From NCBI RefSeq assembly GCF_003790525.1, contig NZ_CP033635.1: a DNA stretch of 64,000 bases; one strand, given 5' to 3'. Shown here piece by piece: positions 27,568 through 45,302 of this stretch. The DNA comes from Escherichia coli (GTDB lineage Bacteria; Pseudomonadota; Gammaproteobacteria; Enterobacterales; Enterobacteriaceae). Each line of letters starts with the position of its first letter. Within the stretch, counting starts at the first letter, position 1. The notes under the pieces are model-generated. The model was not told the origin of the DNA. It worked only from the letters and a program-made list of their open reading frames with translations, and made no database searches. A program made the translations under genes and the position numbers.

Positions 27568-27585
27568 TGTCGCTGTCAGGAGACA
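27568..27585. promoter_or_regulatory. Ogr-type late-promoter dyad TGT-N12-ACA between divergent D and FI
   Basis: TGTTGTcgctgtcaggagACAACA, about 76 bp from the D ATG and 85 bp from the FI ATG. Confidence 0.5.
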
Positions 27586-27661
27586 ACATCAAAGGGGTGA
27601 GATTACCGCGTGTGTGGGTAATGATTACGCAAAATCAACCAGCCAGACAAGGGTGAAACAT

Positions 27662-28945
27662 ATGAGTGAAACACGCTTTCATGGTGCGCGCGTAAGGGAA
27701 AGTACCGGCCTTGCCACCGCCATTAATGATGTGGATTCCAGTGTTATTGGTATTGTGGCTACGGCAGATGACGCGGATGAAACTCTGTTCCCGCTGAACA
27801 AACCCACACTGCTGACCCGCGTCAGTGATGTGCTGGGTAAGGCCGGCACAAAGGGGACGCTTTACAAATCGCTTAAGGCTGTCGCCGACCAGGTGAGCAC
27901 GAAGGTGATTGTGGTGCGCGTTCCTGATGCCAGTTCTCAGGGCGCCCCGGATACAGGAGTTACATCATTCGGTCATCTGGATCCTGAAGACAGGGCATTT
28001 TTTGGTATTGATGAGTCTGAAGATGCACATCCTGTATACCCACACAAAACGCAGGACCAGTATGTCATTGGTGGCACGGATGGCGACGGTAATTATACCG
28101 GTATGTATGCACTTCTGATAGCTGAACAGGATGATGCCATCGGTTACCGTCCGCGCATCATCGCAGCTCCCGGACTGGATACTGAAGCTGTCACAAAATC
28201 CCTGTGTGTAATTGCAGAAAAACTTCGCGCATTTGTCTACGCGGGCTGTCACAACTGCAAGAAGCCCGCCGATGCAATCAGCTACCGCGCCAGATTTAAC
28301 GAGCGCGAACTTATGCTGGTCTGGCCGGACTTCATCGCCCATAACCCGAAATCCGGCGCTAATGAGGTCTTCCCGGCTGTGGCGTACGCCTGCGGTTTAC
28401 GTGCACGTATTGACCACGAACAGGGCTGGCATAAATCGCTGTCCAACGTGCCGGTAAGAAATGTGCTGGGTATTTCCAGCCCGGTGTTCTGGTCCCTTCA
28501 GTCCGAAGACAGCGATGCCAACAATCTCAACAACAAGGAAATCACTACCATCATTTGCCGTAACGGTTTCCGCTTCTGGGGCAACCGTACGCCGGAAACG
28601 AAGGCGTATATCTTTGAGGTGTACACGCGAACCGCTCAGGTGCTGGCTGATTCCATTGCGGAAGCGCAGTTTGAAACGATTGATGCCCCGCTGACCCCTG
28701 CTAATGTGAAAGACGTGTTAAGCGCAATTCGCGCAAAACTGGATGCGCTGGTTACGTCAGGACGTCTCATTGGTGCGGAGTGCTGGTATGACGTGGTGGA
28801 TAACAGCACCACGGAACTTCGTCAGGGACGCGTGCGTATCCGCTACAAGTACACGCCCGTTCCGCCGCTTGAGGATATGGAACTTTACCAGGCGTTTACT
28901 GATGAATTCTTTGGTCCTGCATTTGCGACGCTTGGAGGTGCTTAA
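27662..28945 (+). CDS. FI: Tail sheath protein (P2 FI-like)
   Basis: MSETRFHGARVRE...DETLFPLNKPTLL...KGTLYKSLKAVADQ resembles P2 FI. Confidence 0.85.
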   Translation: MSETRFHGARVRESTGLATAINDVDSSVIGIVATADDADETLFPLNKPTLLTRVSDVLGKAGTKGTLYKSLKAVADQVSTKVIVVRVPDASSQGAPDTGVTSFGHLDPEDRAFFGIDESEDAHPVYPHKTQDQYVIGGTDGDGNYTGMYALLIAEQDDAIGYRPRIIAAPGLDTEAVTKSLCVIAEKLRAFVYAGCHNCKKPADAISYRARFNERELMLVWPDFIAHNPKSGANEVFPAVAYACGLRARIDHEQGWHKSLSNVPVRNVLGISSPVFWSLQSEDSDANNLNNKEITTIICRNGFRFWGNRTPETKAYIFEVYTRTAQVLADSIAEAQFETIDAPLTPANVKDVLSAIRAKLDALVTSGRLIGAECWYDVVDNSTTELRQGRVRIRYKYTPVPPLEDMELYQAFTDEFFGPAFATLGGA

Positions 28946-29463
28946 TGGCCGTACCAAAAAATCTCAGGGTGTTCACGCTGTTTACTGACGGGGTGAACCA
29001 GATTGGCAGGGTGACCGGCTTCACGCCCCCCAAACTGACCCGTAAAACGGAAGCCTATCGCGGTGGTGGTATGGCCGGCGCGGTGAATATCGACCTTGGT
29101 CTGGATGACGGCGCGCTGGATGCGAGTTTCACCATGGGCGGGCCGACCCGCGAACTGTTCCTTAAGTACGGCGGCACGATCGACGGTACGCTGCTGCGCT
29201 TTGTCGGTGAGTACTACAACGATGAAGAGCAGAGCGACCTGTATGAAATTGAGCTTCGCGGCCGCGTGACGGAAATTGATACGGGGGAGGCAAAACAGGG
29301 TGAGGTCACGTCTCACACCTATGCGGTCAGGAGTACCTACTACAAACTCAGCATTAACGACCGTCCGGTGCTGGAGATTGATTTACTGAACCACATCGAA
29401 CGCAAGGACGGCAAAAACGTCTTCCCGGACCGCGTGCGCTCGGCGATTGGTCTTGGTGGTTAA
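28945..29463 (+). CDS. FII: Tail tube protein (P2 FII-like)
   Basis: 172 aa directly after the sheath gene. Confidence 0.8.
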   Translation: MAVPKNLRVFTLFTDGVNQIGRVTGFTPPKLTRKTEAYRGGGMAGAVNIDLGLDDGALDASFTMGGPTRELFLKYGGTIDGTLLRFVGEYYNDEEQSDLYEIELRGRVTEIDTGEAKQGEVTSHTYAVRSTYYKLSINDRPVLEIDLLNHIERKDGKNVFPDRVRSAIGLGG

Positions 29464-29513
29464 TGTTTCCCACGGCGGCGCGCGGCGTCGCCCCCTGATT
29501 TGAGGTTTTATGC

Positions 29514-29876
29514 ATGAAAGAAAATCCGGTTGTTGCCCCTGTTACTGACGGTGCTGATGCGGCGGACGTGACCAGTGAGCGCGGCGTGACGCTGAAAACG
29601 CCCCTTGTGCTCGGTAACAAAAAAATCACGTATGTGGAAATCACGCCTGCTGTACAGCAGGCCGGTTCACTGCGCGGGCTGTCACTGCTTGACGTGCTGA
29701 ACATGAAAACGGACGCGATGTTTGAGTTACTCCCGCGCGTCACTTCGCCGCGACTGGACGAGGTTCTGCTTAAGCGCATGGGGTCCGCTGATTTTATTCA
29801 GCTGTGCGGGGTGGCGGTTAATTTTTTGGCCGGTCAGGACTCTGGCGGGAAGAGCGGGGCGGCGACGGCAGGCTGA
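29514..29876 (+). CDS. E: Tail assembly chaperone (P2 E-like); E+E' product by -1 frameshift would extend to about 30040
   Basis: Position between tube and tape measure; slippery heptamer near the 3' end. Confidence 0.7.
   Translation: MKENPVVAPVTDGADAADVTSERGVTLKTPLVLGNKKITYVEITPAVQQAGSLRGLSLLDVLNMKTDAMFELLPRVTSPRLDEVLLKRMGSADFIQLCGVAVNFLAGQDSGGKSGAATAG
29822..29828 (+). promoter_or_regulatory. Candidate -1 programmed frameshift heptamer T_TTT_TTG (E/E')
   Basis: In-frame AAT TTT TTG; -1 frame continues about 70 codons to TGA at 30038-30040. Confidence 0.55.
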
Positions 29877-30026
29877 TAACCGTCGTGCCCTTTGAGCACA
29901 TTGAAGACTTTGTGGCGGATATCGCCGTTATTTTCAACTGGTCTCCCGCTGAAATCTTCCTGATGGATCCCGGCGAGGTGGTCGCCTGGCGTGAGCGGGC
30001 GGCCCTTCGCAGCGGGAACGCAGAGC

Positions 30027-33000
30027 ATGAAAACGCTTGATATACGGGTCGCCTTCAGCGCTGTTGACAGGCTGACCCGTCCCACCGAAAACGCCCGTCG
30101 CATGATGGGCCAGCTTGGCGACTCCATACAGAGAACGCAGGGTGCGATCAAAAACCTGGAACGCTACGCCCGTTCATTTGATCGCGCCCGCGAGGCTGCA
30201 AACAAGGCCGGAAACGGCATTGTCAGGGCGCAACGCCAGTTAAGCGCACTTCAGCAAATTCAGCGCGCCGGAACCGTGCTGTCTGACAAACAGAAAAAGC
30301 TGATGAACGATTTGAGCCTCAAACTTGAGCGTCTCAATGAGGTCCGTGCGCGTGAAGTTCAGCGAATGCGCGAACTGGGTGGTGAGCTGCGGCGCCACGG
30401 TATTGCGCTTTCCGGCAGTGACAACACCATTCAACAGGCCATACGGCGAACACAGCAATACAACGACCAGCTGGAACGCGAACGGCAGGCGCTGGCACGT
30501 GTCACGCAGGCACGCCAGCAATATTCCCGTGCTCAGGAGACGGCGGGAAAACTTAAAACGGTCGGACTTACGGCGGTTGGTACGGCGGCGGCAGGCGGCT
30601 ATGCGGCCGGACGTTTCCTGCAACCGGCGGTCAGTTTTGGTAAGGAGATGTCACGCGTCCAGGCGCTGACCCGTATTGACAAAAACAGTCCGCAGTTTAA
30701 GGCGCTGCGCGAACAGGCCATTAAGCTGGGCTCTGAAACGCAGTTTACCGCCGGTGATGCTGCCAGCGGTCAGGCGTTCCTTGCCATGGCCGGCTTCACA
30801 CCACAGGCCATACAGGCGGCGCTACCCGGCGTGCTTGATCTGGCAATGGCTGCAGGGATGGACCTGGGACAGACTGCCGATATCAGTTCGAATATCCTCA
30901 CACAGTTTGGTCTGTCCGCTGACCAGATGGATCGCGTGGGTGACACGCTGGCCGCCACCTTCACACGAACCAATACGGATCTCCGTTCACTGGGTGAAAC
31001 CATGAAGTACACGGGTCCGGTTGCAGCTTCACTTGGCCTGTCCCTTGAACAGGCGGCAGCCATGACGGGTGTCCTTGGCAGTGTGGGGATCCGTGGAAGT
31101 GATGCAGGTACGGCGCTGCGTGCCAGTCTGTCACGTCTGGTTGATCCGCCGAAGGCCGCTGCAATGGCACTGAAAGAGCTTGGCGTGGAGACGCAGAATG
31201 CTTACGGGAACATGCGCCGGATGGAAAATATCCTGAATGAGCTGTACCAGGCCACCCGAAAATACGGTAATGCCGCGCAGGTCTCCTTTTTCAGGGCTAT
31301 TGCCGGGCAGGAGTCCTATGTTTCCCTGATGAATCTTGTCACTGCGGCGGGGGAAAATAATCTTCCCCGTCTTACGCAGGAGATTGAACTGGCCACCGGG
31401 GAACTTAATCACACTGCCCGTGTTATGGCTGATAACCTGGACGGTGACCTGAAATCACTGAACAGCGCATGGGAAGGACTGCGTATCCGTGTCGCTGACC
31501 TCGTTGACGGGCCGCTGCGTTCTGTCACGCAGTCGTTCACCCGGGTTATTGCGAAAGTCACCGCGCTGGCTCAGGCGCACCCTGAACTGACAAAACAACT
31601 GCTGATTGCCGGTGGTGTACTGCTGGCTGCGGTTGCGGCCATGGGGGCGCTGTCACTTGCCACTGGTGTGTTGATGGGGCCGCTGGCAAAACTGCGTCTT
31701 GGGTTTGCCCTGCTGACCGGCACATCCGGCCTCGGTCGTGCGCTGCCGTTACTGACGCAGCTGCGCGGCGTACTCGGTGGTCCGCTGGGCGGTATCGGTG
31801 GCTGGCGCGTGCTGTTTGTCGGTATCACCTCCGGTGCCGGACGGTTTGCTGCACTGCTGGGCGTAGTTGCGGGGCGGCTTCGTGGTGTGCAGGCGGGACT
31901 TGGCGCGCTGCGTGGTGGTCTGCTGGCTGCGTTCACTTCACCTGGCGGCGCACTGATTTCACTGGGGCGCGGTATCGGAATACTGGCGCTCAGACTGTCA
32001 GGTCTGCCCGCACTGTGGGGGATGGTGAGTGGTGCGGTGGGCGCACTTGGCGGGGCGCTGGGTTTTCTGTTAAGTCCGGTGGGCCTTGTGGTGGCGACAC
32101 TGGTCGGTGCGGCAGTGCTTATCTGGCGGCACTGGGACCAGCTGAAGGCTGTCGTGGGCGGGTTCTTGTCCGGCCTGTGGCAGGGGCTTACGCCACTGCG
32201 CGAGGCTGTGGCACCACTGGGACCGCTGTTTGAGTATGTCGGGCAGACAATCGGGCGTGTGTGGCAGTGGTTCGTGGATTTGTTCGCGCCGGTAAGCACA
32301 ACAAAGGATGAGCTGGACAAGTGCACGGAAGCCGGGCGTACGTTCGGGCAGAAGGTAGGGGAGTTTATCAGCAATCTGGTGACCGGTCCGGTTACGCTGC
32401 TGATTGACTCATTAACCCGGGTGCTGGAAAAACTCGGGCTGATTCCGTCGGCGGTTGAGCGCGCCCGGAAAAAGGCGGAAGAACTAAAACAGAAGGAGTT
32501 GCTGAACGAGAAAGCTGCCATGCTTCTGGCGGATGTTAACGTCATTAATCCGCCGAAAAAGGACGAGGATAAAAAAGACGGCGAAAAACCCAAAGGGGGG
32601 CAACCACCCCTGACGGGGGAGAATACCGGCACTATGCGCCGCCTGAACAAAATCGTCGATAACACCGGTGGTCTGCTGGATGAGGCGAAACAGGCGAAAA
32701 AACGCGCTGGTCCCGGCGATATTATCTTTAAAAACCTGCCGGAAGCGCTGGCCGTTCGTGGTGAGTGGAAGGAGGAACGCTTTAACCGAGCAGCTTCCCT
32801 GTTACCGGGTAGTGTCAGTGAGCCACCTGTCAGACTGCCGCAGGTGCCGTCGGTCAGTGTGCCTTCGTTGCCACCGCTGCCAGCGCCACCGCCTGTCAGT
32901 GTTTCGCCGCTGATATCCACCACGGCGAACGTGTCGCCGGTCGTGAAGCCGGTGGTGTCCGTGAATAATGTGCCGGTTATTCCTCCGGTCGTCCGTCCGG

Positions 33001-33338
33001 TACTGTCCGGTAATATTACGCCAGTGGTTCCGCCGGTGATCAAACCGGTTATGACTCACGATGTCATGCCGACGTTCTCCCCGCTAATGACACCAGTGAT
33101 GGCGGCAACATCCCGTCCGGTGGTTGAGGCTGTGCGCCAGCCCATATCCCCCGCATCGCCCCGACCGCGCCAGAGTGAGCCGGCACCATGGGGATTAACT
33201 GGCGAACTGCATATTCACCTGCATGATGTTCACACGCAAAACCCGCGCGAACTGGCAAAAATGGTGGGTGATGCCGTCCGTGCGGAAATGGAACGCCGTA
33301 TCCGCCAGACAGTCGGTAGTTTCCGTGACAGAGATTAG
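30027..33338 (+). CDS. T: Tail tape measure protein (P2 T-like)
   Basis: About 1103 aa, coiled-coil N-terminus, Gly/Ala-rich hydrophobic middle; start MKTLDIRV. Confidence 0.85.
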   Translation: MKTLDIRVAFSAVDRLTRPTENARRMMGQLGDSIQRTQGAIKNLERYARSFDRAREAANKAGNGIVRAQRQLSALQQIQRAGTVLSDKQKKLMNDLSLKLERLNEVRAREVQRMRELGGELRRHGIALSGSDNTIQQAIRRTQQYNDQLERERQALARVTQARQQYSRAQETAGKLKTVGLTAVGTAAAGGYAAGRFLQPAVSFGKEMSRVQALTRIDKNSPQFKALREQAIKLGSETQFTAGDAASGQAFLAMAGFTPQAIQAALPGVLDLAMAAGMDLGQTADISSNILTQFGLSADQMDRVGDTLAATFTRTNTDLRSLGETMKYTGPVAASLGLSLEQAAAMTGVLGSVGIRGSDAGTALRASLSRLVDPPKAAAMALKELGVETQNAYGNMRRMENILNELYQATRKYGNAAQVSFFRAIAGQESYVSLMNLVTAAGENNLPRLTQEIELATGELNHTARVMADNLDGDLKSLNSAWEGLRIRVADLVDGPLRSVTQSFTRVIAKVTALAQAHPELTKQLLIAGGVLLAAVAAMGALSLATGVLMGPLAKLRLGFALLTGTSGLGRALPLLTQLRGVLGGPLGGIGGWRVLFVGITSGAGRFAALLGVVAGRLRGVQAGLGALRGGLLAAFTSPGGALISLGRGIGILALRLSGLPALWGMVSGAVGALGGALGFLLSPVGLVVATLVGAAVLIWRHWDQLKAVVGGFLSGLWQGLTPLREAVAPLGPLFEYVGQTIGRVWQWFVDLFAPVSTTKDELDKCTEAGRTFGQKVGEFISNLVTGPVTLLIDSLTRVLEKLGLIPSAVERARKKAEELKQKELLNEKAAMLLADVNVINPPKKDEDKKDGEKPKGGQPPLTGENTGTMRRLNKIVDNTGGLLDEAKQAKKRAGPGDIIFKNLPEALAVRGEWKEERFNRAASLLPGSVSEPPVRLPQVPSVSVPSLPPLPAPPPVSVSPLISTTANVSPVVKPVVSVNNVPVIPPVVRPVLSGNITPVVPPVIKPVMTHDVMPTFSPLMTPVMAATSRPVVEAVRQPISPASPRPRQSEPAPWGLTGELHIHLHDVHTQNPRELAKMVGDAVRAEMERRIRQTVGSFRDRD

Positions 33339-33349
33339 GAGTACCTCTC

Positions 33350-33838
33350 ATGATGATGATTTACGGCATGTTTGTTTTTGAGTTGCGTACGCTGCCTCAT
33401 CAACAACTGCAACATAATAAAACCTGGCGCCACGTTAAAAATGAACGCATCAATCGTTCGGCCAGCTGGCAGTATATCGGGGCGGGTGACGACCAGATCA
33501 CGTTGTCCGGTGTGCTTTATCCCGAAATTACCGGCGGTGAGGTTTCCCTCAGCCTTTTAACGACGCAGGCTTACACTGGTCGCCCATGGCCGCTGATTGA
33601 CGGTGTGGGGCAGATATACGGCATGTATGTGATAACGGCTGTCCGCACAACGCGAAGCGAACTTGACCGCCACGGTAAGGCCAAAAAAATTGAGTTCACT
33701 GTCAGTCTGGAACGCTGTGATGAGGATTTGCGGGAGAGTATGGCCTCGTCGCCGGTGTCTGATATGCTTTCGGGAATGAAAGGGAAGTTAAGTTCGGTCT
33801 GGAATACCACAGTAAGCGGCGTAAATGATCTGATGTGA
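33350..33838 (+). CDS. U: Tail protein (P2 U-like)
   Basis: MMMIYGMFVFELRTLPHQQLQ...ITLSGVLYPEITGG resembles P2 U. Confidence 0.75.
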   Translation: MMMIYGMFVFELRTLPHQQLQHNKTWRHVKNERINRSASWQYIGAGDDQITLSGVLYPEITGGEVSLSLLTTQAYTGRPWPLIDGVGQIYGMYVITAVRTTRSELDRHGKAKKIEFTVSLERCDEDLRESMASSPVSDMLSGMKGKLSSVWNTTVSGVNDLM

Positions 33839-33845
33839 AGGTAAT

Positions 33846-33865
33846 GTGCCGCATTCTTGCGGCAC
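33846..33865. terminator. Bidirectional hairpin between convergent U (+) and G (-)
   Basis: gtgccgcattcttgcggcac. Confidence 0.5.
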
Positions 33866-33908
33866 CTGCATGATGAATTATTTATGAATGCCCGTTCCTT
33901 TTCCCCGC

Positions 33909-34520
33909 TCATTCCATTTCTGGTGGTGTTTCCGGCCAGCTTATTTCAGGCTCCGTGCTGATATCCAGTGCGTTCAGCTCGTCGATATAATCCAGCACGG
34001 CATTCAGTTTTGCCGTTTCTTCTGGTGTCAGACTGCGACCTGCCCGCAACTTAAGGTTGATGAGGTCGATGGACTTCATCGCCTGATCCACCCGTTCCTT
34101 GCGTTGCTGTCTGGCAACCTCCAGCTCTTCGGCTTGCTGCCGTTCTGTATCGGTTACCCACGCCTCACCGTTCCAGGTATCCCATGGTGTGGCAGGCTGT
34201 TTTGTCGTTGTCCCTTCCGGGTAGTCACCTGGTTGGGTAATCTGGACCGGATTACCGTTCTCTGTGCTGTATACCGTCTCTCCACGATGATCGGGGACAT
34301 ACTCCCACCCGTCCAGCGTGGACGTCCGGCAAATCACGTAACCCGGCATTGCCTCTGGCGGGGCATCGGCGCATGAATGTGCCGGGGTACCCACCCCCAG
34401 GGCGAGATACTCCACAGAGGATGAGGTGTATTCCCGGGTTTCCTCATCATAGTGATATACAGTGATATCGCCTGCGAAAGTGGCGATACCGTTTTCATCC
34501 AGAACTGCAGTGTTACTCAT
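33909..34520 (-). CDS. G: Tail fiber assembly protein (P2 G-like)
   Basis: 203 aa downstream of the tail fiber gene. Confidence 0.7.
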   Translation of the reverse strand: MSNTAVLDENGIATFAGDITVYHYDEETREYTSSSVEYLALGVGTPAHSCADAPPEAMPGYVICRTSTLDGWEYVPDHRGETVYSTENGNPVQITQPGDYPEGTTTKQPATPWDTWNGEAWVTDTERQQAEELEVARQQRKERVDQAMKSIDLINLKLRAGRSLTPEETAKLNAVLDYIDELNALDISTEPEISWPETPPEME

Positions 34521-36754
34521 TAAACTGCCCTCACAATATAATTAAAAGCGATATTGCGCGGTCTGATCGCTATCCATCTGTCTTTTTCATTACTCACCAG
34601 CTTACCGGCTCTGGCTATTGCCCATCTGTCAACTGGTTTTGTGCCGTACAGGATGCCGTTACCGGTTCTGGGTTGATCAGGGGTTATGTTTATGATGTCG
34701 TTATCATGTGATGCAAATGAAATCCCTGCCTGAATATCTGCACCTCCCGCTACGCCGTGGTACGCCTGTATGGCGGTACAAATATATGTTGCTTCCTGTG
34801 TGGATAACAATAAGCGTCCCCTGTCAATCATTCGCAGGTCATCCCATCCACGAATAAATTCCCCGCGCAAATCTGGTAGCCTGAGGTCAGGGTAGGCCAC
34901 CGCCAGTTTTGGGTATTTTGTACGCGTGAATGCGGCACCGTTGCACTGTAACCACCCCTCAGGTGGTCTTGACGAAGGCCACGGAACGGGTACGCCAACT
35001 GGCAGCGTCGAGCCTTCTCCTAAACCAAAGTAATCAAGAATATCTTTTATGCTTTGTTTACCCATGATGACGCGGGCAACAGACGAAAAAACAGGGGCGT
35101 CTGTGATCTGAGCCCAGCGATGAGTGTGGGCTGCCGAGGCTTTGCTGTTGGCAAGGTCATACGCAGCTTTAACAGCTTTTGGTGTGGCCGCCAGCGTTTC
35201 GGAATTGCTGTTTGTGGCGCTGCTTAGCTGTACGATGCCTTTGCGTCCGGTGGTTGCATCCTGTCCTGTATACTTGCTCGTCAGCATATCGTGTAAGGCT
35301 TTAACCGCTTTGGGGGTGGCGGCCTCAGTCTCTGACTCACTGTTTGTGGCACTGCTCAGCTGTACGGTGCCTTTTGCCGTCAGCGAGGCTGATGGCACAC
35401 CTGTTATCTGATTCCACGGGTGGGTGTGGCTGGCGGGTGCTTTACCGGCTGCAAGGTCATATGCAGCCTTGACGGCTCTTGGTGTGGCCGCCAGCGTTTC
35501 GGAATTGCTGTTTGTATCGCTGCTCAGCTGTACGATGCCTTTGCGTCCAGTTGTTGCATCTGTGTTTGTCACCTCCACCCACTCTGACCATGGGCCGTTA
35601 CCGTTAAAGTTTCCGGTAACTGTCCTGATAAATTTTCGTGGCGGATCCCAGCTCGTGTATTCATGCTGGCAGAATCCCCATGCACCAACACGGATGCGTA
35701 ACTCTCCTGCCTTCTCTACAGGATAGTTTCTGTCTGTTCTCGCACCTGAGTCACTCTGCTGGTAATAATCTCCCGCGTCTTCCTTACGCCCCAGAGTGTT
35801 CAGGTCTGTTTCCCCCAGGGATGTTGTTGGCTTCACGAACGCCATGCTCAGTGCATCACTTACTGCCTTCGGTGTGGCCGCCAGTGTTTCGGAATTGCTG
35901 TTTGTGGCGCTGCTCAGCTGTACGATGCCTTTGCGTCCGGTGGTTGCATCCTGTCCTGTATACTTGCTCGTCACCATATCGTGTAAGGCTTTAACCGCTT
36001 TGGGGGTGGCCGCCTCAGTCTCTGACTCACTGTTTGTGGCACTGCTCAGCTGTACGGTGCCTTTTGCCGTCAGCGAGGCTGATGGCACACCAGTTATCTG
36101 ATTCCACGGGTGGGTGTGGCTGGCGGCTGCTTTACCGGCTGCAAGGTCATATGCAGCCTTGACGGCCTTCGGTGTGGCGGCCAGTGTTTCAGAGGTGCTG
36201 TTTGTGGCGCTGCTCAGTTGGGTGAATCCTTTTTCTGTCAGTGTCGCGTCAGGGTGGTTACGGGAACGTGCGTGTTCCGCCATTTTCTCATCAATGTAGT
36301 CCGTGGTCGGCAGAATTGTTGTTGTGTCCATGACCAGTTCCACCACGGCGTCGGAGGTGACGGTGATTACTGCACGGAATATCTGCGCCCGCCCTGAACC
36401 TTCCTCTCTGGTGGGCTTGTAACTTTCAGCGGTATTTCCTACTGCAATCATTGTACCTGTATCATCAAACACACCAATTTCACGCACCCAGAATCCGCCG
36501 GTTTCAGGAGGAATGACCAGTTCGGCGATGAGGCGGTTCGGGTTCTCCGGGTCGGTGAAGACGCGGTTGACAGACTGGCGCCAAACCTCATTGTAAAGCG
36601 ATGTCTGGTTTTTCTGCGGCTGACGAAGCTCTCCATTGCCGTCCCCTACAGCCATGTGCGTAAGGCGTACAGGTCTACCGCCAGGCGCCGTTGTTGCGGC
36701 CAGCTTTGCCAGCCCGATGTCGGTGATAAGGGTTCTGAATTTTCTCGTGCTCAT
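34520..36754 (-). CDS. H: Tail fiber protein (P2 H-like) with internal repeated modules
   Basis: 744 aa; repeated TGRKGIVQLSSATNSNSETLAATPKAVKAAYDLA and TAKGTVQLSSATNSESETEAATPKAVKALHDM blocks. Confidence 0.8.
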   Translation of the reverse strand: MSTRKFRTLITDIGLAKLAATTAPGGRPVRLTHMAVGDGNGELRQPQKNQTSLYNEVWRQSVNRVFTDPENPNRLIAELVIPPETGGFWVREIGVFDDTGTMIAVGNTAESYKPTREEGSGRAQIFRAVITVTSDAVVELVMDTTTILPTTDYIDEKMAEHARSRNHPDATLTEKGFTQLSSATNSTSETLAATPKAVKAAYDLAAGKAAASHTHPWNQITGVPSASLTAKGTVQLSSATNSESETEAATPKAVKALHDMVTSKYTGQDATTGRKGIVQLSSATNSNSETLAATPKAVSDALSMAFVKPTTSLGETDLNTLGRKEDAGDYYQQSDSGARTDRNYPVEKAGELRIRVGAWGFCQHEYTSWDPPRKFIRTVTGNFNGNGPWSEWVEVTNTDATTGRKGIVQLSSDTNSNSETLAATPRAVKAAYDLAAGKAPASHTHPWNQITGVPSASLTAKGTVQLSSATNSESETEAATPKAVKALHDMLTSKYTGQDATTGRKGIVQLSSATNSNSETLAATPKAVKAAYDLANSKASAAHTHRWAQITDAPVFSSVARVIMGKQSIKDILDYFGLGEGSTLPVGVPVPWPSSRPPEGWLQCNGAAFTRTKYPKLAVAYPDLRLPDLRGEFIRGWDDLRMIDRGRLLLSTQEATYICTAIQAYHGVAGGADIQAGISFASHDNDIINITPDQPRTGNGILYGTKPVDRWAIARAGKLVSNEKDRWIAIRPRNIAFNYIVRAV

Positions 36755-36757
36755 GGT

Positions 36758-37324: not shown

Positions 37325-38210
37325 GTCCTCCTTCGCTGATGCTGAATGTGGTACATCTGGCTGCCTGAGTGTCACTGATGGTGATGTTCTGCGTGGGTTT
37401 TATGACCTCAACGCGCTGGACACCGTGAACATGCAGCGCTGCAGTGATGGCTGACAGGGCCACGTCCTGACCGATACGGCCCTGGTCTGCCAGCCATGCA
37501 CGGAAAGCGGCGTCAGCGGCCGCAAGCATGGGTTCAGACTCCGGCCCTGGATAAAAATACAGCTTCGCTTCCATTACCCAGTTCACGATGGTAGCACTCT
37601 GCACAGTCAGGCGGTCGGCAACCGGGCGCACGTTCTCGGCATTCAGGGCGGTGCGCACCGTGTTCAGTAACGCCTCACCGGCGGTGCCGTCACCGTCTGC
37701 TGACAGGATGGAGACGGTGACTGTGGCCGGTGACGGGCTGATGGCGCGCGCATCACGGACAAGACCGCTTGCGCTCCGGGCAAAATACTCATACGCGCCG
37801 GACGGTCCGGCCACACTCAGGCCGTCCCAGGCTGACTGGGCACGCAGACGCAGCGATGTGTCGCTTTCCATCACTGCTTCCGTGGTATCAGTGGCCGGAT
37901 GAATGACCAGGCGGCGGGTGTTGTTGTTGGCGGCCAGATTGTCCAGGTCACTGCCCCGGCTGTGGCTGAGCATGCAGGCGCGGGCGGCTTCATTGATGCG
38001 CTGGCGAAGCAGCATTTCACGAAAGGCCATGGCCTGGGAAATGATGTTCAATGGCTCGGATTCCAGAGTAAGGGCACGGGTGACGGCGGCGCGGTATTCT
38101 TCCGGGAAGGAGCTCACCATCATGGTTTTAATGTCTGCCAGGATGGACTCAAAATCCGGCTGCGCGATGATGGCCGGTTCCGGTAACTGTGACAGGTCAA
38201 CGGAAGGCAT
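37314..38210 (-). CDS. J: Baseplate protein (P2 J-like)
   Basis: 298 aa in the V-W-J-I-H-G block. Confidence 0.75.
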   Translation of the reverse strand: MPSVDLSQLPEPAIIAQPDFESILADIKTMMVSSFPEEYRAAVTRALTLESEPLNIISQAMAFREMLLRQRINEAARACMLSHSRGSDLDNLAANNNTRRLVIHPATDTTEAVMESDTSLRLRAQSAWDGLSVAGPSGAYEYFARSASGLVRDARAISPSPATVTVSILSADGDGTAGEALLNTVRTALNAENVRPVADRLTVQSATIVNWVMEAKLYFYPGPESEPMLAAADAAFRAWLADQGRIGQDVALSAITAALHVHGVQRVEVIKPTQNITISDTQAARCTTFSISEGGRNE

Positions 38211-38213
38211 GAT

Positions 38214-38564
38214 TTACTCCCTCAGGGTGATACTGAATGTGATGTTCTGCATGGTTTCGGTGATGATGCCGGATAACGTCACCACGGCGCGTCCGCCAGC
38301 CCGCCAGTTCACATCGACGTTCTGCAGTGCTATACGGGGTTCATGGCGCGCCAGCGCAGTCACCGTGGCGCTCATGCACTGTAAACGCGTGGTGTCGTTC
38401 ATGGGCTCGTCGATGAGGTCCGGTAACAGGCTGCCGTATTCGCGGCGCATCACCCGGCTGCCTGGCGGTGTGGTCAGGATATCCCGCACGCTGTTTTTCA
38501 GGTGTTCGCTGTCGCTCAGCGTGCCGGTTCCCTGCGGGTTCATCCCCCTGTAAACAGCGGTCAT
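38214..38564 (-). CDS. W: Baseplate protein (P2 W-like)
   Basis: About 116 aa from MTAVYRGMNP; the track ORF extends upstream. Confidence 0.7.
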   Translation of the reverse strand: MTAVYRGMNPQGTGTLSDSEHLKNSVRDILTTPPGSRVMRREYGSLLPDLIDEPMNDTTRLQCMSATVTALARHEPRIALQNVDVNWRAGGRAVVTLSGIITETMQNITFSITLRE

Positions 38565-39142
38565 TGCGGGCCTCCCGTGGTGCCCGGGCCCGTCCTGACG
38601 CCACCGTGGGTGTGCGTATGAACGGTGATACCGTTGGATGTCAGGCTGCCGCCGCTGTGGGATATGCTGCCGCGCATCTCGCCGCCGTTCTGCACCTCCA
38701 GGGTGGCGGTGATAAGTTTGCGGGTACACACCACCTCCGACGTGTCCAGGGTGATGCGCGTGTCGGCCTGAATGCTGGCTGTTTTAATCCCCTTAACCTC
38801 CAGTGCACCGGCGTCTGCATCGTAGCGGAATACCGCACCGTCCGGTGCTGTCATGATGATTTCCTTCAGTGTGCTGCCCGGTGCCGGGATATCATCGCTC
38901 CAGAGGCTGCCGATGATTATCGCGGTTTCGGGATTACCACCGATACAGACGAACGCCACCTGTTCACCGGTGGCTGGCGGCACCCAGACACTGAACGCGC
39001 CCGCCCGCGCGGTGCTCCAGCGAAGCCAGCCTGTCTCCAGTCCGCCACTGCGCACCCGGACCTCCCAGGTCTGCGGGTTCACGTCGAAAATCACGCCGGT
39101 TCTGATGATGTTGCTGATAAGGCGCATTAATTCCGCGTTCAT
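38561..39142 (-). CDS. V: Baseplate spike/hub protein (P2 V-like)
   Basis: 193 aa; position. Confidence 0.75.
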   Translation of the reverse strand: MNAELMRLISNIIRTGVIFDVNPQTWEVRVRSGGLETGWLRWSTARAGAFSVWVPPATGEQVAFVCIGGNPETAIIIGSLWSDDIPAPGSTLKEIIMTAPDGAVFRYDADAGALEVKGIKTASIQADTRITLDTSEVVCTRKLITATLEVQNGGEMRGSISHSGGSLTSNGITVHTHTHGGVRTGPGTTGGPQ

Positions 39143-39795
39143 GCCACAGCCCTCGCGATATTGTCCATAATGATACGCTGAATAAGTCGTTCATCTGCCG
39201 GTGTTATTCCAAGAAGTTCACGGGCCGGATAATCCGTATACATCCCTGCGGCCACCCGGTCGCGCTCCCCGAACTGGTGAACGCGGGCAATGCGTGCCGC
39301 CACGCCGCTGTAGCCCACCGTCACGCCTGATGCGTCCGCCTTCACTTTCAGATAACGGGCCGTGCGCAGCTTCGCAAACATCGGCACCGTTTTTGTGGTG
39401 TCACGGTTGATGCGGCGTGTCCTGATTTCAAGGAAACGGAGGATATCACTCCGGTAAAAGGTACGTATGCCGCTCCGGTCTTCATCCCAGCCGGTGATGG
39501 TCTGGCCGTATTTTCCTGAACCGTGATGCCAGTTTTTCAGGGTGCGGTTCTGGTTTTGCCAGATAAAGCTGATGCGCTCCTGAAGGCGTGATATACGGCG
39601 TTTACGGCGTGTCCACACCGAACCGTCCGGCGCTTTCTGGGCGCGCATCCGGCTCTGGTTCACGCGCCGCAGCTCCTTACCCACATGCGCGGCAATGCGC
39701 TTCACTGCCTGCGGGCTGGTTGCCAGCCGGATATTGACAAACATGTTACTCATTCCTTCAGCGGGAACGAGGTTACGGTATCTCAGTTTCCCCAT
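39139..39795 (-). CDS. S: Tail completion protein (P2 S-like); start uncertain
   Basis: Position after R; ORF longer than P2 S. Confidence 0.55.
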   Translation of the reverse strand: MGKLRYRNLVPAEGMSNMFVNIRLATSPQAVKRIAAHVGKELRRVNQSRMRAQKAPDGSVWTRRKRRISRLQERISFIWQNQNRTLKNWHHGSGKYGQTITGWDEDRSGIRTFYRSDILRFLEIRTRRINRDTTKTVPMFAKLRTARYLKVKADASGVTVGYSGVAARIARVHQFGERDRVAAGMYTDYPARELLGITPADERLIQRIIMDNIARAVA

Positions 39796-39810
39796 AACAT
39801 TCTCCGCGTG

Positions 39811-40275
39811 TTATCCGGTGACAATGTTCCACGTCACATCCTCCAGAATGTGTGACCAGTCGCCGTCCTGCGGGATGCGTGATTTCGGCTCCGGTAGATG
39901 TTCTGTCATGAGGGTGCCGTCATCCCTGCGGGTGACGCGCACGCGTTCACGTAACGGCAGCTCAAACAGCACGTCCGCGCTGTCGTCGTCGTTAATGGCC
40001 GCCGTGAACTGAATATCGTTGTTGCGCTCAGGATTAAGCAGCAACTGCGGCTGGTTCTCTGCCAGCCAGACAATCAGTGGAAGCGTCAGGTTGTCCAGAT
40101 CGCCCGTGTAGTCCATCACGAACATCACCAGCCGGTAGTTGTACACGAACGTCGGCGTCTCGCCGGTGGTCTCTATCCCGCCACGTTCAATGAACACGGT
40201 GAACTTTTCCGGGTTGGCCCTGCACCACCGGCACGCTGTACTCATGTGTGTGCTCAGGGATTTACTTTTCAGCAT
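39811..40275 (-). CDS. R: Tail completion protein (P2 R-like)
   Basis: 154 aa from MLKSKSLSTH. Confidence 0.65.
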   Translation of the reverse strand: MLKSKSLSTHMSTACRWCRANPEKFTVFIERGGIETTGETPTFVYNYRLVMFVMDYTGDLDNLTLPLIVWLAENQPQLLLNPERNNDIQFTAAINDDDSADVLFELPLRERVRVTRRDDGTLMTEHLPEPKSRIPQDGDWSHILEDVTWNIVTG

Positions 40276-40546
40276 GCGCCTCTCCGTTCTGTCGGTTGAG
40301 TCTCCGGCGCTCCATCGCCTCAATGGCCCGTTTGTCTGCGTTGCAGGTTTCCAGTGCATCCAGGAGGCTGTCGCTCCATATCCCGATATTTCCCCAGGTG
40401 GGGTGTTCAGGGAAGGGCGGGGGCCGTGTTCCCGTCGTCAGTCCCGCCGGAATGAACCGGAAGGAGGGCGCGGGCAGTGGCGCGTTCCGTGTGTTCGCGC
40501 AGCCGGTCAGTAAAACGGTGGTCAGGAAGAGTGCCGGCGCACTCAT
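40262..40546 (-). CDS. lysC: o-spanin lipoprotein (LysC/Rz1-like)
   Basis: Lipobox LLTGC, proline-rich; overlaps the 3' end of the lysB-like gene. Confidence 0.6.
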   Translation of the reverse strand: MSAPALFLTTVLLTGCANTRNAPLPAPSFRFIPAGLTTGTRPPPFPEHPTWGNIGIWSDSLLDALETCNADKRAIEAMERRRLNRQNGEAHAEK

Positions 40547-40814
40547 CCGTCGCAGCAATTTCGCGAAGCTGTTCACGTCTGACTTCTCCTTCCTGTGCCC
40601 TTTTCTGTCGCTGCGTCATCACCTCATGCAGTACGGCGGAGGCATCGCTGATAACGGCGGAGGACTCACGCAGCGCCCGGCTGTATTCGCCCAGCTGCTG
40701 CTCTGCGGCGTCACGTGCCTCACCGGCACGCCCCAGCCGGTATGACTGCCACATGGCCGCCGCCGTCAGGGTGGTCACCATGAGGGCAACAATCACGGCG
40801 TAAACCGGTCTCAT
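40407..40814 (-). CDS. lysB: i-spanin (LysB/Rz-like)
   Basis: N-terminal TM helix then charged coiled coil. Confidence 0.55.
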   Translation of the reverse strand: MRPVYAVIVALMVTTLTAAAMWQSYRLGRAGEARDAAEQQLGEYSRALRESSAVISDASAVLHEVMTQRQKRAQEGEVRREQLREIAATDECAGTLPDHRFTDRLREHTERATARALLPVHSGGTDDGNTAPALP

Positions 40815-41356
40815 GTGCTGCCTCCCGTGTCGCGAAGACACCACTGTCTGAACTCCTCCCGGCGGTTAACCAGCCCCTGTGAGCGGCGTCCGCCACTGTT
40901 GACAAAATCGGTCAGTCTCCCGCACATCGCCACCCAGCGGTGCGCCTGTGCGTGCTTCCAGATGGTGGTGCGCTGCCGGTTGCCGCTCCTGTCCCGGTAC
41001 CACATCAGGCCGGTACAGCCGACGTTGAACGCCGCGTCGGTCATCGCCTCAAAGGCGGACTGGGGCATGGCGGCACCGCTGAAGTTCTGGTTGATACAGT
41101 TTTCCGCGTGCCGCAGGTCATTCACCCAGCGGCGGGCCACCTCCTTTTCTCCGTAAACCCGGTTCTCCACGCCCCCTGTTGAACCACATCCCACGGTCAT
41201 TACTCCTGCAATATCACGGTACGGTGTCGCCCGGCACTCTTCCCGGGTGGCGATTTTTATCTGTGCTTCCCGTGAGGTTCTCAGTTCACCGGGTGCCATG
41301 GAGACGCCCAGCGCCACAATGGCCGCCACCGCATAACGTTTTACCGGCAGTTTCAC
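40811..41356 (-). CDS. Endolysin (lysozyme family) with N-terminal SAR-like hydrophobic segment
   Basis: YAVAAIVALGVSMAPG then lysozyme-like motifs; C-terminus resembles phage 21 R-type SAR endolysins. Confidence 0.7.
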   Translation of the reverse strand: MKLPVKRYAVAAIVALGVSMAPGELRTSREAQIKIATREECRATPYRDIAGVMTVGCGSTGGVENRVYGEKEVARRWVNDLRHAENCINQNFSGAAMPQSAFEAMTDAAFNVGCTGLMWYRDRSGNRQRTTIWKHAQAHRWVAMCGRLTDFVNSGGRRSQGLVNRREEFRQWCLRDTGGST

Positions 41357-41643
41357 CGCTCTTCTCCGTCCTGTCTCACGCTGTCCAGTGCCCGTCTCTC
41401 ACCGTCGTGAAGCTCGCGGTTTTCTGAACGTGCCAGGATGCGGGCGATAAGGTCATTGCGGCGCTTCATTGCCTGCTCCGTACGCCTGCGGTGGCACCAG
41501 GCATGGATGGCGGAAAGTGACCCCAGAAGCAGCCCGGCCAGCGCAATTTTTTCGCTGATGGTCATAACACCAATGGTTGTTGCCGTCACTGACGCCCAGA
41601 AGGTGATCCAGTCACTGACGCGCTGAAAAAATCCCGTCACCAT
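41353..41643 (-). CDS. Holin
   Basis: 96 aa with two TM segments and charged C-terminus, directly upstream of the endolysin. Confidence 0.6.
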   Translation of the reverse strand: MVTGFFQRVSDWITFWASVTATTIGVMTISEKIALAGLLLGSLSAIHAWCHRRRTEQAMKRRNDLIARILARSENRELHDGERRALDSVRQDGEER

Positions 41644-41834
41644 AGCTTTACCTTTTCGCGTTGCTGTTTCCTTTCCGGCTCCGGCATCTCCACCTCCTGT
41701 CCCGCTTCCAGAATTACCTGGCGGCAGAGCCCTGGATTGGCATCAAGTACCTGTGCGGTCACCCCCTGCGTGGTGCCGTAGTGCCGGAAACAGAGTAAAT
41801 CGACGGTATCCCCCTGGAGTGCCCTCACTTTCAT
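41637..41834 (-). CDS. X: Tail protein X (P2 X-like)
   Basis: About 65 aa from MKVRALQGDTVD. Confidence 0.6.
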   Translation of the reverse strand: MKVRALQGDTVDLLCFRHYGTTQGVTAQVLDANPGLCRQVILEAGQEVEMPEPERKQQREKVKLW

Positions 41835-42328
41835 CACACCAGCTCCGCAAAAAGACGGGGGCGACCCAGAATATCTGCCACGGACCAGCGCACATCGCGC
41901 CATAAGTCTTCCATCTGCTCATCCAGTGCGTCAGCCCGGCGGTCCCCCTTGTCGGTGGTGTCCACATCCCGCCAGCGTTCCAGAATCAGGGCGCGGGTGG
42001 CGCTGTAGACGGCGTTGCGGTAATGCCATACGTTGACGCTCTCACCGTTGATGGTGGCGGCAGGCACTTCTGCGAGGATGCTGAACCCTGCGGCAGACTG
42101 CGCCTTCTGCCACTCTTCCAGCTCCCGCGTGACGTGAGCCACGGCTCCCGTGGCAACGTGCGCCAGACGTGTGGAGGTGATGCGGCCCGGCAGGCGTACT
42201 GCAAGGCGCAGCTCCCGCAGCACAATCTCCGGCCAGAATGCCCCGGCGGTGATGGTGGCGTCGCCGTCGTCGGTGTCGGGGATATCGTCCCGTGCAGGGG
42301 CGGCTTCCGGTCTTGCGACCATGCTCAT
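41834..42328 (-). CDS. L: Head completion protein (P2 L-like)
   Basis: About 164 aa from MSMVARPEA with SD AAGGAG. Confidence 0.65.
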   Translation of the reverse strand: MSMVARPEAAPARDDIPDTDDGDATITAGAFWPEIVLRELRLAVRLPGRITSTRLAHVATGAVAHVTRELEEWQKAQSAAGFSILAEVPAATINGESVNVWHYRNAVYSATRALILERWRDVDTTDKGDRRADALDEQMEDLWRDVRWSVADILGRPRLFAELV

Positions 42329-42430
42329 AAATCGCTCCTTCAGAAAAAAAGGCGGTGGGTGCCGGGTGTAAGGGGAACGGAAAACCGTAACCGGAACGCC
42401 CGGCACGCCGCCTTCTGACGGGGTCAGCCG

Positions 42431-43207
42431 TTAACCACGTTTCGCCTTCGCTTTCGCCTTCGGCGTCGTGGTCTGTTCTCTGGTTGTATCTTTCTGTGCC
42501 GCAGGCTCCTGTGCGGCAGCGGCTTCATCCTGTCCGGCCTTTTTCAGGGCCCGTGAAAGCGTGGCAATCTCACGTTTTACCCCCGCATTCGGGTTAAGGT
42601 GCATTGCCTCACGGAACAGCTTCAGACTCACCGCCATGCTGTCGGCATCGGTCAGGCCACGACGGGCAAAGGCGCATGCCTTGCACAGCTTGGCGCGGAC
42701 CTCATCGGGCATGTCCCGGTTCGCGACAATTTGCCAGAGGGTGTCCAGCGGTTCGATGTAGCCGGACAAATCGGCGTGTGCATCCGTTCCGGCCTGTGTC
42801 AGAACAGGGTTGCAGATTTCCTCGGTCAGTACCGTGGCTGCCGTACGCCCGAAGTTGTCAGGCATCGTGAGGTTGTGGCGAACCACATAATCCCCGATGC
42901 GCAGTGCAAGCGCCAGGTCGCCACAGTCCACGGCCCACACCATGAGTGTGGCTATCACCTCATCCTGCTGTCCGCCGTCGGCTTCCAGCGTGCCGTCTAT
43001 CCAGCCTGCAAAACCCGGCAGCATTTCACGCTTGAGCGCGGCCTTTGCCGCTTTTGCCTGGACGCCCTTTATGCGTTGCTGTGCCAGGCGCAGACGGTGA
43101 AGGACCTGCTCATGAGCCGTGCGGGCCACGATATCCTCGTTTTCTGCTGCCGTTCCTGCCCGTAAAGCCATCACGTGCTGGAAATGAGCCTGTGCCGGTG
43201 TCAGCAT
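42431..43207 (-). CDS. M: Terminase small/endonuclease subunit (P2 M-like)
   Basis: 258 aa; position between capsid gene and L. Confidence 0.75.
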   Translation of the reverse strand: MLTPAQAHFQHVMALRAGTAAENEDIVARTAHEQVLHRLRLAQQRIKGVQAKAAKAALKREMLPGFAGWIDGTLEADGGQQDEVIATLMVWAVDCGDLALALRIGDYVVRHNLTMPDNFGRTAATVLTEEICNPVLTQAGTDAHADLSGYIEPLDTLWQIVANRDMPDEVRAKLCKACAFARRGLTDADSMAVSLKLFREAMHLNPNAGVKREIATLSRALKKAGQDEAAAAQEPAAQKDTTREQTTTPKAKAKAKRG

Positions 43208-43209
43208 GG

Positions 43210-44349
43210 TTAATCCTCCTCTTCCCCTGCATCCTTGTCTTCAGCCTGCGCTGACAGTGCTTTTATGCCCTCCCGGTACCAGTCCGGCGCGTCATGGTCA
43301 TATTCGGCAAAGCTGATATTCTCAATCAGTGCGCACTTACCATGGTCCTCAACCACATAGCAGTCGTTAACGGACTGATAGATGGCGATACGGTTGTATT
43401 CGGGCTCATCCTTCATGAGACGACGCATGGACCCCTTCTGCCAGTAAACCGACAGGTTGCTGAATGAGGTGATGAGCATTGACTGAGCCGGGAAAAATGG
43501 CGCAAGGTACACATCAAGGTCGCCAATGGTCCGCGTTGACACAATGAGCTGTCCGGCAAGCAGTTCGGCATTCGCATTCTGCATGCTGATACTGTTCAGG
43601 ACCGGCAGGCGCAGGGAGTTAAAGAGGTTTCGCCCCATGATGACAACGAGGTCGTCTGCGTCCTTGTGCCATTCGTCAAGCAGGGATGAGCGTGCATCCT
43701 GGACCAGTGCATCGGGATTGGCGTATCTGCCTGTGTATGCCACCGAATTGTCCATATTGCGCGCAGTCAGCATCACGTCTTTCATGACGCGTTGCGGGGC
43801 CTGGTCCCTGATATCCTGCAGCCACCCCTTATTGACGTCCTCAAGTCGCGGGTGTTTTTTTATATCCGAGACTTCCGCATGGTGCGTACCGTTAAAACCT
43901 GTCATGATGCGATCAAGTGCCACCTGTCTGGCAATCTGGCGACTCACACGCAGCTGGAAGTCAGGGTGTCCGGCCCACATGTCAAGCTGAGGGTAGGAGA
44001 TGAAGGTGTCGTAGTTCACCTGCTCGCACTCATAGCGTCGCGCTTTCATGTCCACCACATTCAGCGGGTTACGACGATTTGTACCGTCATAACTGCTGTT
44101 CGTGCGCGCAACCGGCCCGGTGGTGTCCAGGAGTACCTTTTCACCTTTCTGCTCTGTCACACCAATGCTGTTGGCTTTCTGAAGAAAATCATGGCTTTCC
44201 TTTGATGCGTTTTCAAATCTCTGCTGCACTGCCGGCTGTACCGAAAAGCGGGAGGAGAGCGCAGATATCGTGATGTTATTCATCTCCGCCTGTTGTGCCT
44301 GGTAAGCAAAAAGCTCGGCCCGCGCGGCATCGCTCATGATCAGATTCAT
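43210..44349 (-). CDS. N: Major capsid protein (P2 N-like)
   Basis: 379 aa; position. Confidence 0.85.
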   Translation of the reverse strand: MNLIMSDAARAELFAYQAQQAEMNNITISALSSRFSVQPAVQQRFENASKESHDFLQKANSIGVTEQKGEKVLLDTTGPVARTNSSYDGTNRRNPLNVVDMKARRYECEQVNYDTFISYPQLDMWAGHPDFQLRVSRQIARQVALDRIMTGFNGTHHAEVSDIKKHPRLEDVNKGWLQDIRDQAPQRVMKDVMLTARNMDNSVAYTGRYANPDALVQDARSSLLDEWHKDADDLVVIMGRNLFNSLRLPVLNSISMQNANAELLAGQLIVSTRTIGDLDVYLAPFFPAQSMLITSFSNLSVYWQKGSMRRLMKDEPEYNRIAIYQSVNDCYVVEDHGKCALIENISFAEYDHDAPDWYREGIKALSAQAEDKDAGEEED

Positions 44350-44377
44350 CGGTTATCACCTCTTGTGGTTATTTCTG

Positions 44378-45214
44378 TCAGTAGTCAGCCAGTTGTCTGG
44401 ACTGCCCGCCGGTTGCCGTAAAACGACTTTCCTGATCAGCGTCCAGTCCGCGCAGTCTGTTTTTCAGCTCTGCCAGCTCAGTGGACAGGGTGGCGATTTT
44501 CTGTCTGTCTGCCTGATGGCGCGATTCCAGTGCACTGAAGCGGTCGAGAAGGTCGGCATGCGATGAGGCTATCCCCTCAACGGCGTCATGAATGCGGGAG
44601 AACCGGGTGTCGTCAGCCCTGCGTCCTCGCCCAATCATGTTCATCACGCGGTTAAGCCACTGCGCACCTTCCTCGCTGCGGCGCTCCGTCAGTTCGATCA
44701 CTTCAGCCTCAATGGCGTCAGAGAACATCGGTGCTTCCGTCTGCTGATTATTGAAGGTCATGACCGAACGGCGCTGCTGCAGGGCGAACTGAAGACGCTC
44801 CGTGCCGATGCTTGCCGGGGTGTCTGTCATGGCAAGGCCAATAAGATACGGGGTGCCCGTAGGGGTGAAATTTCGTGCCAGCTCAATACTGGAGTAAATT
44901 TTCTTACCCCGGGAGACCAGATTTTTCATGCGGTCGGTGGGTTCGATTTCCGCATACAGCGCAGTACGACCGACCAGCGGACCTTCGGTGATTTCTTCTG
45001 TGCTCAGTGCCGTCACATCACCCATGGCGGAAAATTCACTGGACGGAACCGGTGAAAGCCAGTGCTCCACGTTCACGCGTGCGCCGTAAATCTCAGGGTT
45101 GAAGTTACTGGCCGCCGCGCGCAAATCTGCGGCACTGATTTCGCGACCGTCTGCGGTGGGACCGGAAACGGCCACGCGGAATGTTTTACGGGATGTTTTT
45201 TTCTGTTCAGGCAT
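44378..45214 (-). CDS. O: Capsid scaffold protein (P2 O-like)
   Basis: About 278 aa from MPEQKKTSRK with SD GAGGG; the track ORF extends to 45355. Confidence 0.75.
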   Translation of the reverse strand: MPEQKKTSRKTFRVAVSGPTADGREISAADLRAAASNFNPEIYGARVNVEHWLSPVPSSEFSAMGDVTALSTEEITEGPLVGRTALYAEIEPTDRMKNLVSRGKKIYSSIELARNFTPTGTPYLIGLAMTDTPASIGTERLQFALQQRRSVMTFNNQQTEAPMFSDAIEAEVIELTERRSEEGAQWLNRVMNMIGRGRRADDTRFSRIHDAVEGIASSHADLLDRFSALESRHQADRQKIATLSTELAELKNRLRGLDADQESRFTATGGQSRQLADY

Positions 45215-45284
45215 TGTCGGGCCCTCGTGATGATCGTTTGTCTCATGATGGCAAAACGGGGCAGGGACAGACAAAGTGCGTTTG

Positions 45285-45302
45285 TTGTAAGCGAATGCCG
45301 AC
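45285..45302. promoter_or_regulatory. Ogr-type late-promoter dyad TGT-N12-ACA between divergent O and P
   Basis: TGTTGTaagcgaatgccgACAACA, about 79 bp from the O ATG and 76 bp from the P ATG. Confidence 0.5.

Follow-up and report, generated by a model that had tools for sequence, protein, structure and literature searches.

The late genes of the P2-family prophage that lies between serS and dmsA of the Escherichia coli chromosome (contig NZ_CP033635.1, of which a stretch of 64 kb, here called the window, was analysed) are arranged in four units that diverge from two short intergenic gaps. This arrangement raises the question of how the units are switched on, and of whether a single activator site in each gap could serve the genes on both of its sides. 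Each divergent gap was found to contain one palindrome, or dyad, of the form TGTTGT-N12-ACAACA. We consider, with a probability of roughly 75%, that these dyads are the sites of the prophage's own late activator of the Ogr family, that each of them is positioned some 55-57 bp upstream of a pair of weak sigma-70 promoters pointing in opposite directions, and that the two sites run the late regulon.

Location and rarity of the dyads

The prophage shows ~72-79% nucleotide identity to phage P88 and other Xuanwuvirus-type phages. The genes flanking the dyads were identified as D, FI, O and P by the RefSeq annotation and by Pfam, and the synteny agrees with that of P88 and P2. The first gap (27501-27661, midpoint 27581) separates the start of D (27500, minus strand) from that of FI (27662, plus strand) and holds dyad 1, TGTTGTCGCTGTCAGGAGACAACA, at 27565-27588 (centre 27576.5), a predicted Ogr-family activator site common to the divergent promoters pD and pFI. 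The second gap (45215-45368, midpoint 45291.5) separates the start of O (45214, minus strand) from that of P (45369, plus strand) and holds dyad 2, TGTTGTAAGCGAATGCCGACAACA, at 45283-45306 (centre 45294.5), the predicted counterpart for the divergent pO and pP. The late genes diverge at no other gap, and the dyad centres are displaced from the gap midpoints by 3-5 bp, in agreement with the first-pass annotation of this DNA, which had placed the dyads almost midway between D and FI and between O and P. The coordinates given there were those of the inner TGT-N12-ACA core; they are exact for dyad 1 (27568-27585) and one base off for dyad 2, where the core occupies 45286-45303. In both 24-bp dyads the 6+6 arms are perfect, as is the TGT-N12-ACA core.

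The two dyads are the only exact matches to TGTTGT-N12-ACAACA in the whole 64-kb window, and no further match appeared when one mismatch was allowed. From base composition and from shuffled sequences, ~0.003 exact extended dyads would be expected by chance per 64 kb. The window shows no excess of the minimal motif TGT-N12-ACA (11 found, 15.6 expected), and when up to three mismatches are tolerated the extended dyad is about as frequent as by chance (32 found, 29.6 expected). The signal is therefore carried only by the extended form, that is, by the two perfect copies together with their location. A third site, corresponding to pV or serving ogr, was looked for as well, and no dyad with up to three mismatches was found in any intergenic gap of the prophage. 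The prophage has no pV analogue: the genes S and V overlap and a third dyad is absent.

TGT-N12-ACA is the consensus of the P2 late promoters, which depend on Ogr (PMC3931495). The earlier proposal that the dyads are sites of this type is supported by this published consensus, by the presence of an Ogr/Delta gene in the prophage and by the geometry and conservation described below. An extended form, TGTTGT-X13-ACAACA, has been described in the Ralstonia P2-like phages phiRSA1 and phiRSY1 (PMC5694545), and in Stenotrophomonas phage Smp131 one TGT-N12-ACA dyad was assigned to both PP' and PO' (PMC3931495). The sites of these three phages are sequence predictions; like those of the window they are placed upstream of late operons with no sigma-70 consensus nearby, and the extended arms are the same. 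The arm spacing reported for the Ralstonia phages is 13, whereas it is 12 in the window, and the hosts and gene orders differ.

Predicted promoters on both sides of each dyad

In the reference record of P2 (NC_001895) one feature, at 3057-3087, is labelled 'activator binding site; pO, pP promoters', and the start of the P operon is given as 3016 on the minus strand and that of the O operon as 3127 on the plus strand, so that a central site working in two directions is already established for P2. The dyad frame of this site, TGTTGT-N12-CCATCC, occupies 3060-3083, and its centre is 55.5 bp away from either start. The suggestion of the first-pass annotation that one central site may serve both directions has thus a precedent in P2, and the geometry of the window is the same, which by analogy makes a two-way use of both dyads plausible.

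In order to compare the promoters, the sequences were anchored on the 24-bp dyad frame and positions (x) were counted outwards from the end of the frame; we scored hexamers that start at x29-36 and have an A at position 2 and a T at position 6. Exactly one such hexamer was found in every case, both in the P2 promoters whose starts are annotated (four) and in the half-promoters of the window (four). In P2 these are GAAAAT for pF (x33-38), CAATCT for pV (x32-37), GAAACT for pO (x32-37) and TAGCCT for pP (x32-37), and the annotated starts of these four late promoters are at x44-46. At dyad 1 the opposed hexamers are AATGAT (27620-27625, plus strand, x32-37), the predicted -10 element of pFI with a start near 27632, and AACCAT (27527-27532, minus strand, x33-38), the predicted -10 of pD with a start near 27520. 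At dyad 2 both are at x33-38: TAAACT (45339-45344, plus strand) is the predicted -10 of pP, with a start near 45351, and CATCAT (45245-45250, minus strand) that of pO, with a start near 45238. The -10-like hexamers are consequently found at x32-38 in all four directions, and the predicted starts are 55.5-56.5 bp from the dyad centres, the reference distance of -55 for the activator site having been taken from secondary citations and from the annotation of the P2 record. The predicted leaders have 18-30 nucleotides and a ribosome-binding site each; that of pD is 20 nucleotides long, with GGAGAG before the D start codon at 27500.

Sigma-70 consensus scans of the D/FI and O/P gaps detected no consensus sigma-70 promoter in either, and the best -10-like hexamers match at 3-4 of the 6 positions. 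The lack of a consensus promoter in the gaps is what would be expected of promoters that depend on an activator.

Dyad 2 resembles the P2 pO/pP site in its location, with O and P diverging from it, in its TGTTGT arm, in the 12-bp arm spacing and in the -10-like hexamers at x32-38; the starts predicted for the window are ~56.5 bp from the centre, as compared with 55.5 bp in P2. The right arm differs (CCATCC in P2, ACAACA in the window), the arm that matches perfectly faces P in P2 and O in the P88-type relatives, and the rest of the P2 O/P intergenic sequence cannot be aligned with that of the window. Dyad 1 can be compared with the P2 pF site (17555-17583), which is also upstream of the tail-sheath gene FI, has its better arm (TTGT) distal to FI and a -10 at x33-38, the pF start being 57.5 bp from the centre of the site. 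The P2 pF site works in one direction only, and the P2 D gene is the last of the F operon, with a start that overlaps the end of U and without a promoter of its own. In the window, in contrast, FI-U runs opposite to its orientation in P2 while that of D-ogr has been kept, and as a result the pF site also faces D-ogr. Moreover, D has here its own 161-bp gap and ribosome-binding site, whereas the start of P2 D overlaps U, and a promoter facing D is therefore required. From these gene orders it appears that the old pF site has gained a second client, D-ogr.

It could be argued that the dyads are Ogr-type sites which act on one side only, activating pFI at dyad 1 and perhaps just one of pO and pP at dyad 2, and that D-ogr is read by other means, namely a separate weak promoter, the ogr promoter alone or minus-strand read-through. 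In P2 there is no promoter before D to serve as a precedent, and the -10 candidate of pD is the weakest of the four (3 of 6 positions). In addition, no clear terminator separates G from the antisense strand of U-FI, where there is just a hairpin lacking a T tract at 33846-33865, and in the relatives the perfectly conserved arm is on a single side of the dyad. On the other hand, P2 uses one site for pO and pP, no consensus sigma-70 promoter faces D, and read-through would have to cross 6 kb of antisense. A block on the D side, CATG(A/C)(A/G)ACCAT, is also kept at a fixed distance from the dyad in three of four genera, and the GATCCT found in its place in the fourth shares the A and the T at positions 2 and 6. 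We therefore regard one-sided action as unlikely.

Conservation in related phages

The named phages used for comparison were P88, 520873, 503458, P884B11 and Shae_phiSM (Xuanwuvirus), 500465-2 (Gemsvirus), 3LV2017 (Reginaelenavirus) and T5282H (Novemvirus), and 160 IMG/VR loci were also compared. In all relatives that could be examined D-ogr diverges from FI, and O from P; the distinct relatives number more than 70 and belong to four genera. Among the 49 distinct D/FI sequences the left arm TTTGTTGT and parts of both -10-like blocks are invariant, and the 12-bp spacer varies freely (for example CGCCGTGGCGGG, CGCCGGGCGGCA, CGTCGAATCGGG and AAGCGAACGGTG). The pFI -10 is kept as (A/G)AT(G/T)AT in four genera. 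That of pD is kept as (A/G)A(C/T)C(A/C)T in the aligned relatives, with the exception of the frameshifted genome 503458, in which it is out of register. Among the 29 distinct O/P sequences the TGTTGT left arm, CATCAT and TGCCATCATG are invariant, and nearly all relatives carry TAATCT (the usual form) or TAAACT as the -10 of pP.

Arms that are conserved around a spacer that is free to vary are the signature of a protein-binding site, unlike that of an RNA hairpin. This bears on the possibility that the dyads are not activator sites at all, but RNA hairpins, terminators, palindromes that arose by chance, or targets of some other protein, for instance the immunity repressor, Cox or CRP. Palindromes can fold, and those of the window form modest hairpins (z-scores of -1.1 to -2.5); the missing enrichment of the minimal motif might also speak for chance, against which stands the very low expectation for the extended dyad. 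In the relatives the hairpin is not kept, since changes in the spacer are not compensated and the right arm is imperfect; there is no T tract, and the dyads are upstream of the predicted starts. A search of Rfam gave no RNA family at either dyad. Sites for CRP have their triplets spaced as TGT-N10-ACA, not N12. The hairpin or terminator reading was consequently rejected for its weak folds, missing T tract and lack of conservation, and taken as a whole we find it highly improbable that the dyads are something other than activator sites.

The right arm is less constant than the left. At D/FI the perfect ACAACA was found only in the window's own lineage, other lineages having AGAACG, AGAATG, AGAATA, ACAACC or AGACCC, and at O/P the arm is AGAACA, ACAACA, AGAGCA or AGACCC. 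The perfect palindromes of the window are therefore an unusually symmetric lineage variant of a conserved site that is usually asymmetric. The right arms of the two sites (D/FI and O/P, respectively) are alike within each genome, being ACAACA and ACAACA in the window, AGAACG and AGAACA in P88, ACAACC and ACAACC in 3LV2017, and AGACCC and AGACCA in T5282H. This similarity within genomes, along with the difference between lineages, may reflect a co-evolution of the arm with the Ogr protein of each lineage.

One of the IMG/VR loci, IMGVR_UViG_2778261447_000012 (L021), is a mosaic upstream of FI: it is identical to the window rightwards from the pFI -10, and its D side belongs to another lineage, which places the recombination junction between the dyad and the -10. 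Its dyad reads TGTTGTAAGCGAACGGTGAGAACG, with a spacer that starts like that of the O/P dyad of the window.

It had also been noted in the first-pass annotation that both dyads are followed by AAGGGGTGAG. The two copies are real and are the only ones in the window, both on the plus strand and downstream of a dyad (27592-27601 and 45329-45338), but the significance given to them as a common element was not sustained, given that their registers differ and that the O/P copy is not conserved. A second functional element common to both regions, either the site of another factor or a promoter sub-element, could nonetheless be proposed, since a 10-mer is shared in only ~3% of shuffled gap pairs and since the core AGGGGTGAGATTAC is kept at D/FI within the Xuanwuvirus group. 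The shuffle statistic is post hoc. The first copy starts 3 nucleotides after dyad 1 (x4-13) and overlaps the -35-like GTGAGA of pFI (27597-27602, plus strand), which is 17 bp upstream of AATGAT, whereas the second starts 22 nucleotides after dyad 2 (x23-32) and is located in the spacer, abutting the -10 of pP. The D/FI core is confined to the Xuanwuvirus group, being absent from 3LV2017, T5282H and the mosaic L021, and the O/P copy is confined to the window's own lineage and absent from every relative outside it. As a common promoter element AAGGGGTGAG was rejected for its differing register and its lack of conservation at O/P, and a shared function of any kind seems to us quite improbable. 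The repeat is probably incidental, although the first copy may contribute to the -35 region of pFI.

The activator gene and the late regulon

The presumed binder of both dyads is encoded by an ogr-like zinc-finger gene at 26114-26365 (minus strand; PF04606, RefSeq). Its product of 83 amino acids scores 52.4 bits against the Pfam family Ogr_Delta (PF04606; cut-off 26.3), is 42% identical to P2 Ogr and carries four cysteines arranged as CX2CX24CX4C. The Delta protein of phage P4 and the B protein of phage 186 belong to the same family. Their targets are dyads of the same type, with centres close to -55; in Delta the protein is covalently duplicated, and the P4 promoters have an additional site. 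In all four relatives with an intact D (P88, 3LV2017, T5282H and L021) the Ogr homologue is directly downstream of D, and in phage 520873, where D is disrupted, it is found ~1 kb beyond the last D fragment. These genes lack annotation in the deposited records of P88 (34476-34724) and Klebsiella phage 3LV2017 (33280-33525).

The gene is followed by a strong intrinsic terminator at 25977-25996 (minus strand), with a 7-bp GC-rich stem and then T7, and P2 has a terminator in the same place after ogr. A candidate -10 for ogr's own promoter, TAAAAT, is located at 26406-26411 (minus strand) and overlaps the stop codon of D; its surroundings resemble those of the annotated P2 ogr -10.

The tail gene D (26409-27500, minus strand; RefSeq, PF05954) is the first gene of the predicted D-ogr unit. 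The tail operon FI-FII-E-E'-T-U, inverted relative to P2, extends over 27662-33838 on the plus strand (RefSeq) and would be driven by pFI. The operon O-N-M-L-X-lysis-R-S-V-W-J-I-H-G, without a separate pV gap, occupies 33909-45214 on the minus strand (RefSeq) and would be driven by pO, and the P-Q operon (terminase and portal) occupies 45369-48175 on the plus strand (RefSeq, Pfam) and would be driven by pP. The early genes, cox, C and int come after P-Q.

We propose that Ogr would first be made from its own promoter and would then bind both dyads. The bound protein would recruit RNA polymerase to both sides, that is, to pD and pFI at dyad 1 and to pO and pP at dyad 2, through the C-terminal domain of the alpha subunit by analogy with P2 Ogr, for which a genetic interaction with alpha (rpoA109) has been reported (PMC11434276). 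The units D-ogr, FI-U, O-G and P-Q would thereby be turned on, and two sites would cover ~22 kb of late genes. As a third dyad is absent and S and V overlap, these two sites would have to suffice for the whole late regulon. Transcription from pD would read into ogr, ~1.1 kb downstream, and end at the terminator at 25977-25996, so that the activator is predicted to reinforce its own synthesis.

A wider proposal, for which we see the chances as evenly balanced, is that the inversion of FI-U put a palindromic pF site before D-ogr, and that in Xuanwuvirus, Gemsvirus, Reginaelenavirus and Novemvirus two bidirectional Ogr sites fire the entire late regulon. The distance of 1.1 kb between ogr and its target promoter would make a short positive feedback, as compared with the 6-kb read-through of the F operon in P2, and the co-variation of the right arms would be the trace of co-evolution with the activator.

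Several observations weigh against the proposed role of the dyads. The right arm is imperfect in most relatives (AGAACG, AGAATG or AGACCC), which implies that full symmetry of the site is not required, and such asymmetric sites may not serve both sides equally. A strict co-variation of right arm and activator is weakened by L021, whose Ogr is 97.6% identical to that of the window and whose D/FI arm is nevertheless AGAACG. The -10 candidate of pD is weak (AACCAT in the window, GACCAT in P88), and that of P88 would give a leader of just 13 nucleotides. The zinc-finger loop has 24 residues in the Ogr homologue of the window and 22 in P2 Ogr. RefSeq treats the tape-measure gene (29991-33338, plus strand), which is a single uninterrupted open reading frame of 1115 amino acids in the window, as a partial pseudogene with a gap of ~1.1 kb after it, and the prophage may therefore not be fully functional. 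Finally, no description of late promoters was found for P88-type phages in the literature searched, the P88 and phiSM papers making no mention of them.

Other features of the window were recorded along with these. An antisense open reading frame of 490 amino acids (31571-33043, minus strand) overlaps the tape-measure gene. Between the convergent genes U and G, at 33846-33865, there is a perfect 8-bp GC-rich hairpin (GTGCCGCA-TTCT-TGCGGCAC) with a T tract on neither strand, which may stabilise RNA or terminate transcription in both directions. In the region 22900-26000, modules of 70-230 nucleotides are present in two to four direct copies that have diverged (63-99% identity), including the region of a Hok/Gef gene (24938-25078, minus strand) and the terminator-like AAAAAAATGCCCGC...GCGGGCAAAA; these modules have the appearance of remnants of one and the same prophage end, stacked at the attachment junction on the serS side. 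In the early region of the prophage, Rfam identified a C4 antisense RNA (54068-54155, minus strand; 80 bits) adjoining isrK (54191-54266, minus strand; 60 bits), a pair that suggests, here in a P2-like phage, a module of the c4/isrK type for antisense immunity or anti-repression. Rfam also placed the host small RNA STnc130 (59759-59893, minus strand) next to dmsA, just beyond the int end of the prophage, and a tRNA gene (7403-7487, minus strand) in the host flank.

For the biology of this group, the analysis names two control points and four predicted promoters for the late regulon of a prophage type that is common in E. coli, Citrobacter, Klebsiella and Enterobacter. The general picture of P2-type late regulation is left unchanged, since the reference genome of P2 already carries an annotated site common to pO and pP, and the identification of the dyads is in this sense correct but ordinary. 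The modest twist is the bidirectional pF/pD site that would have resulted from the inversion of FI-U and that has been kept across at least four genera: a palindromic activator site would let a block of genes invert without losing its control.

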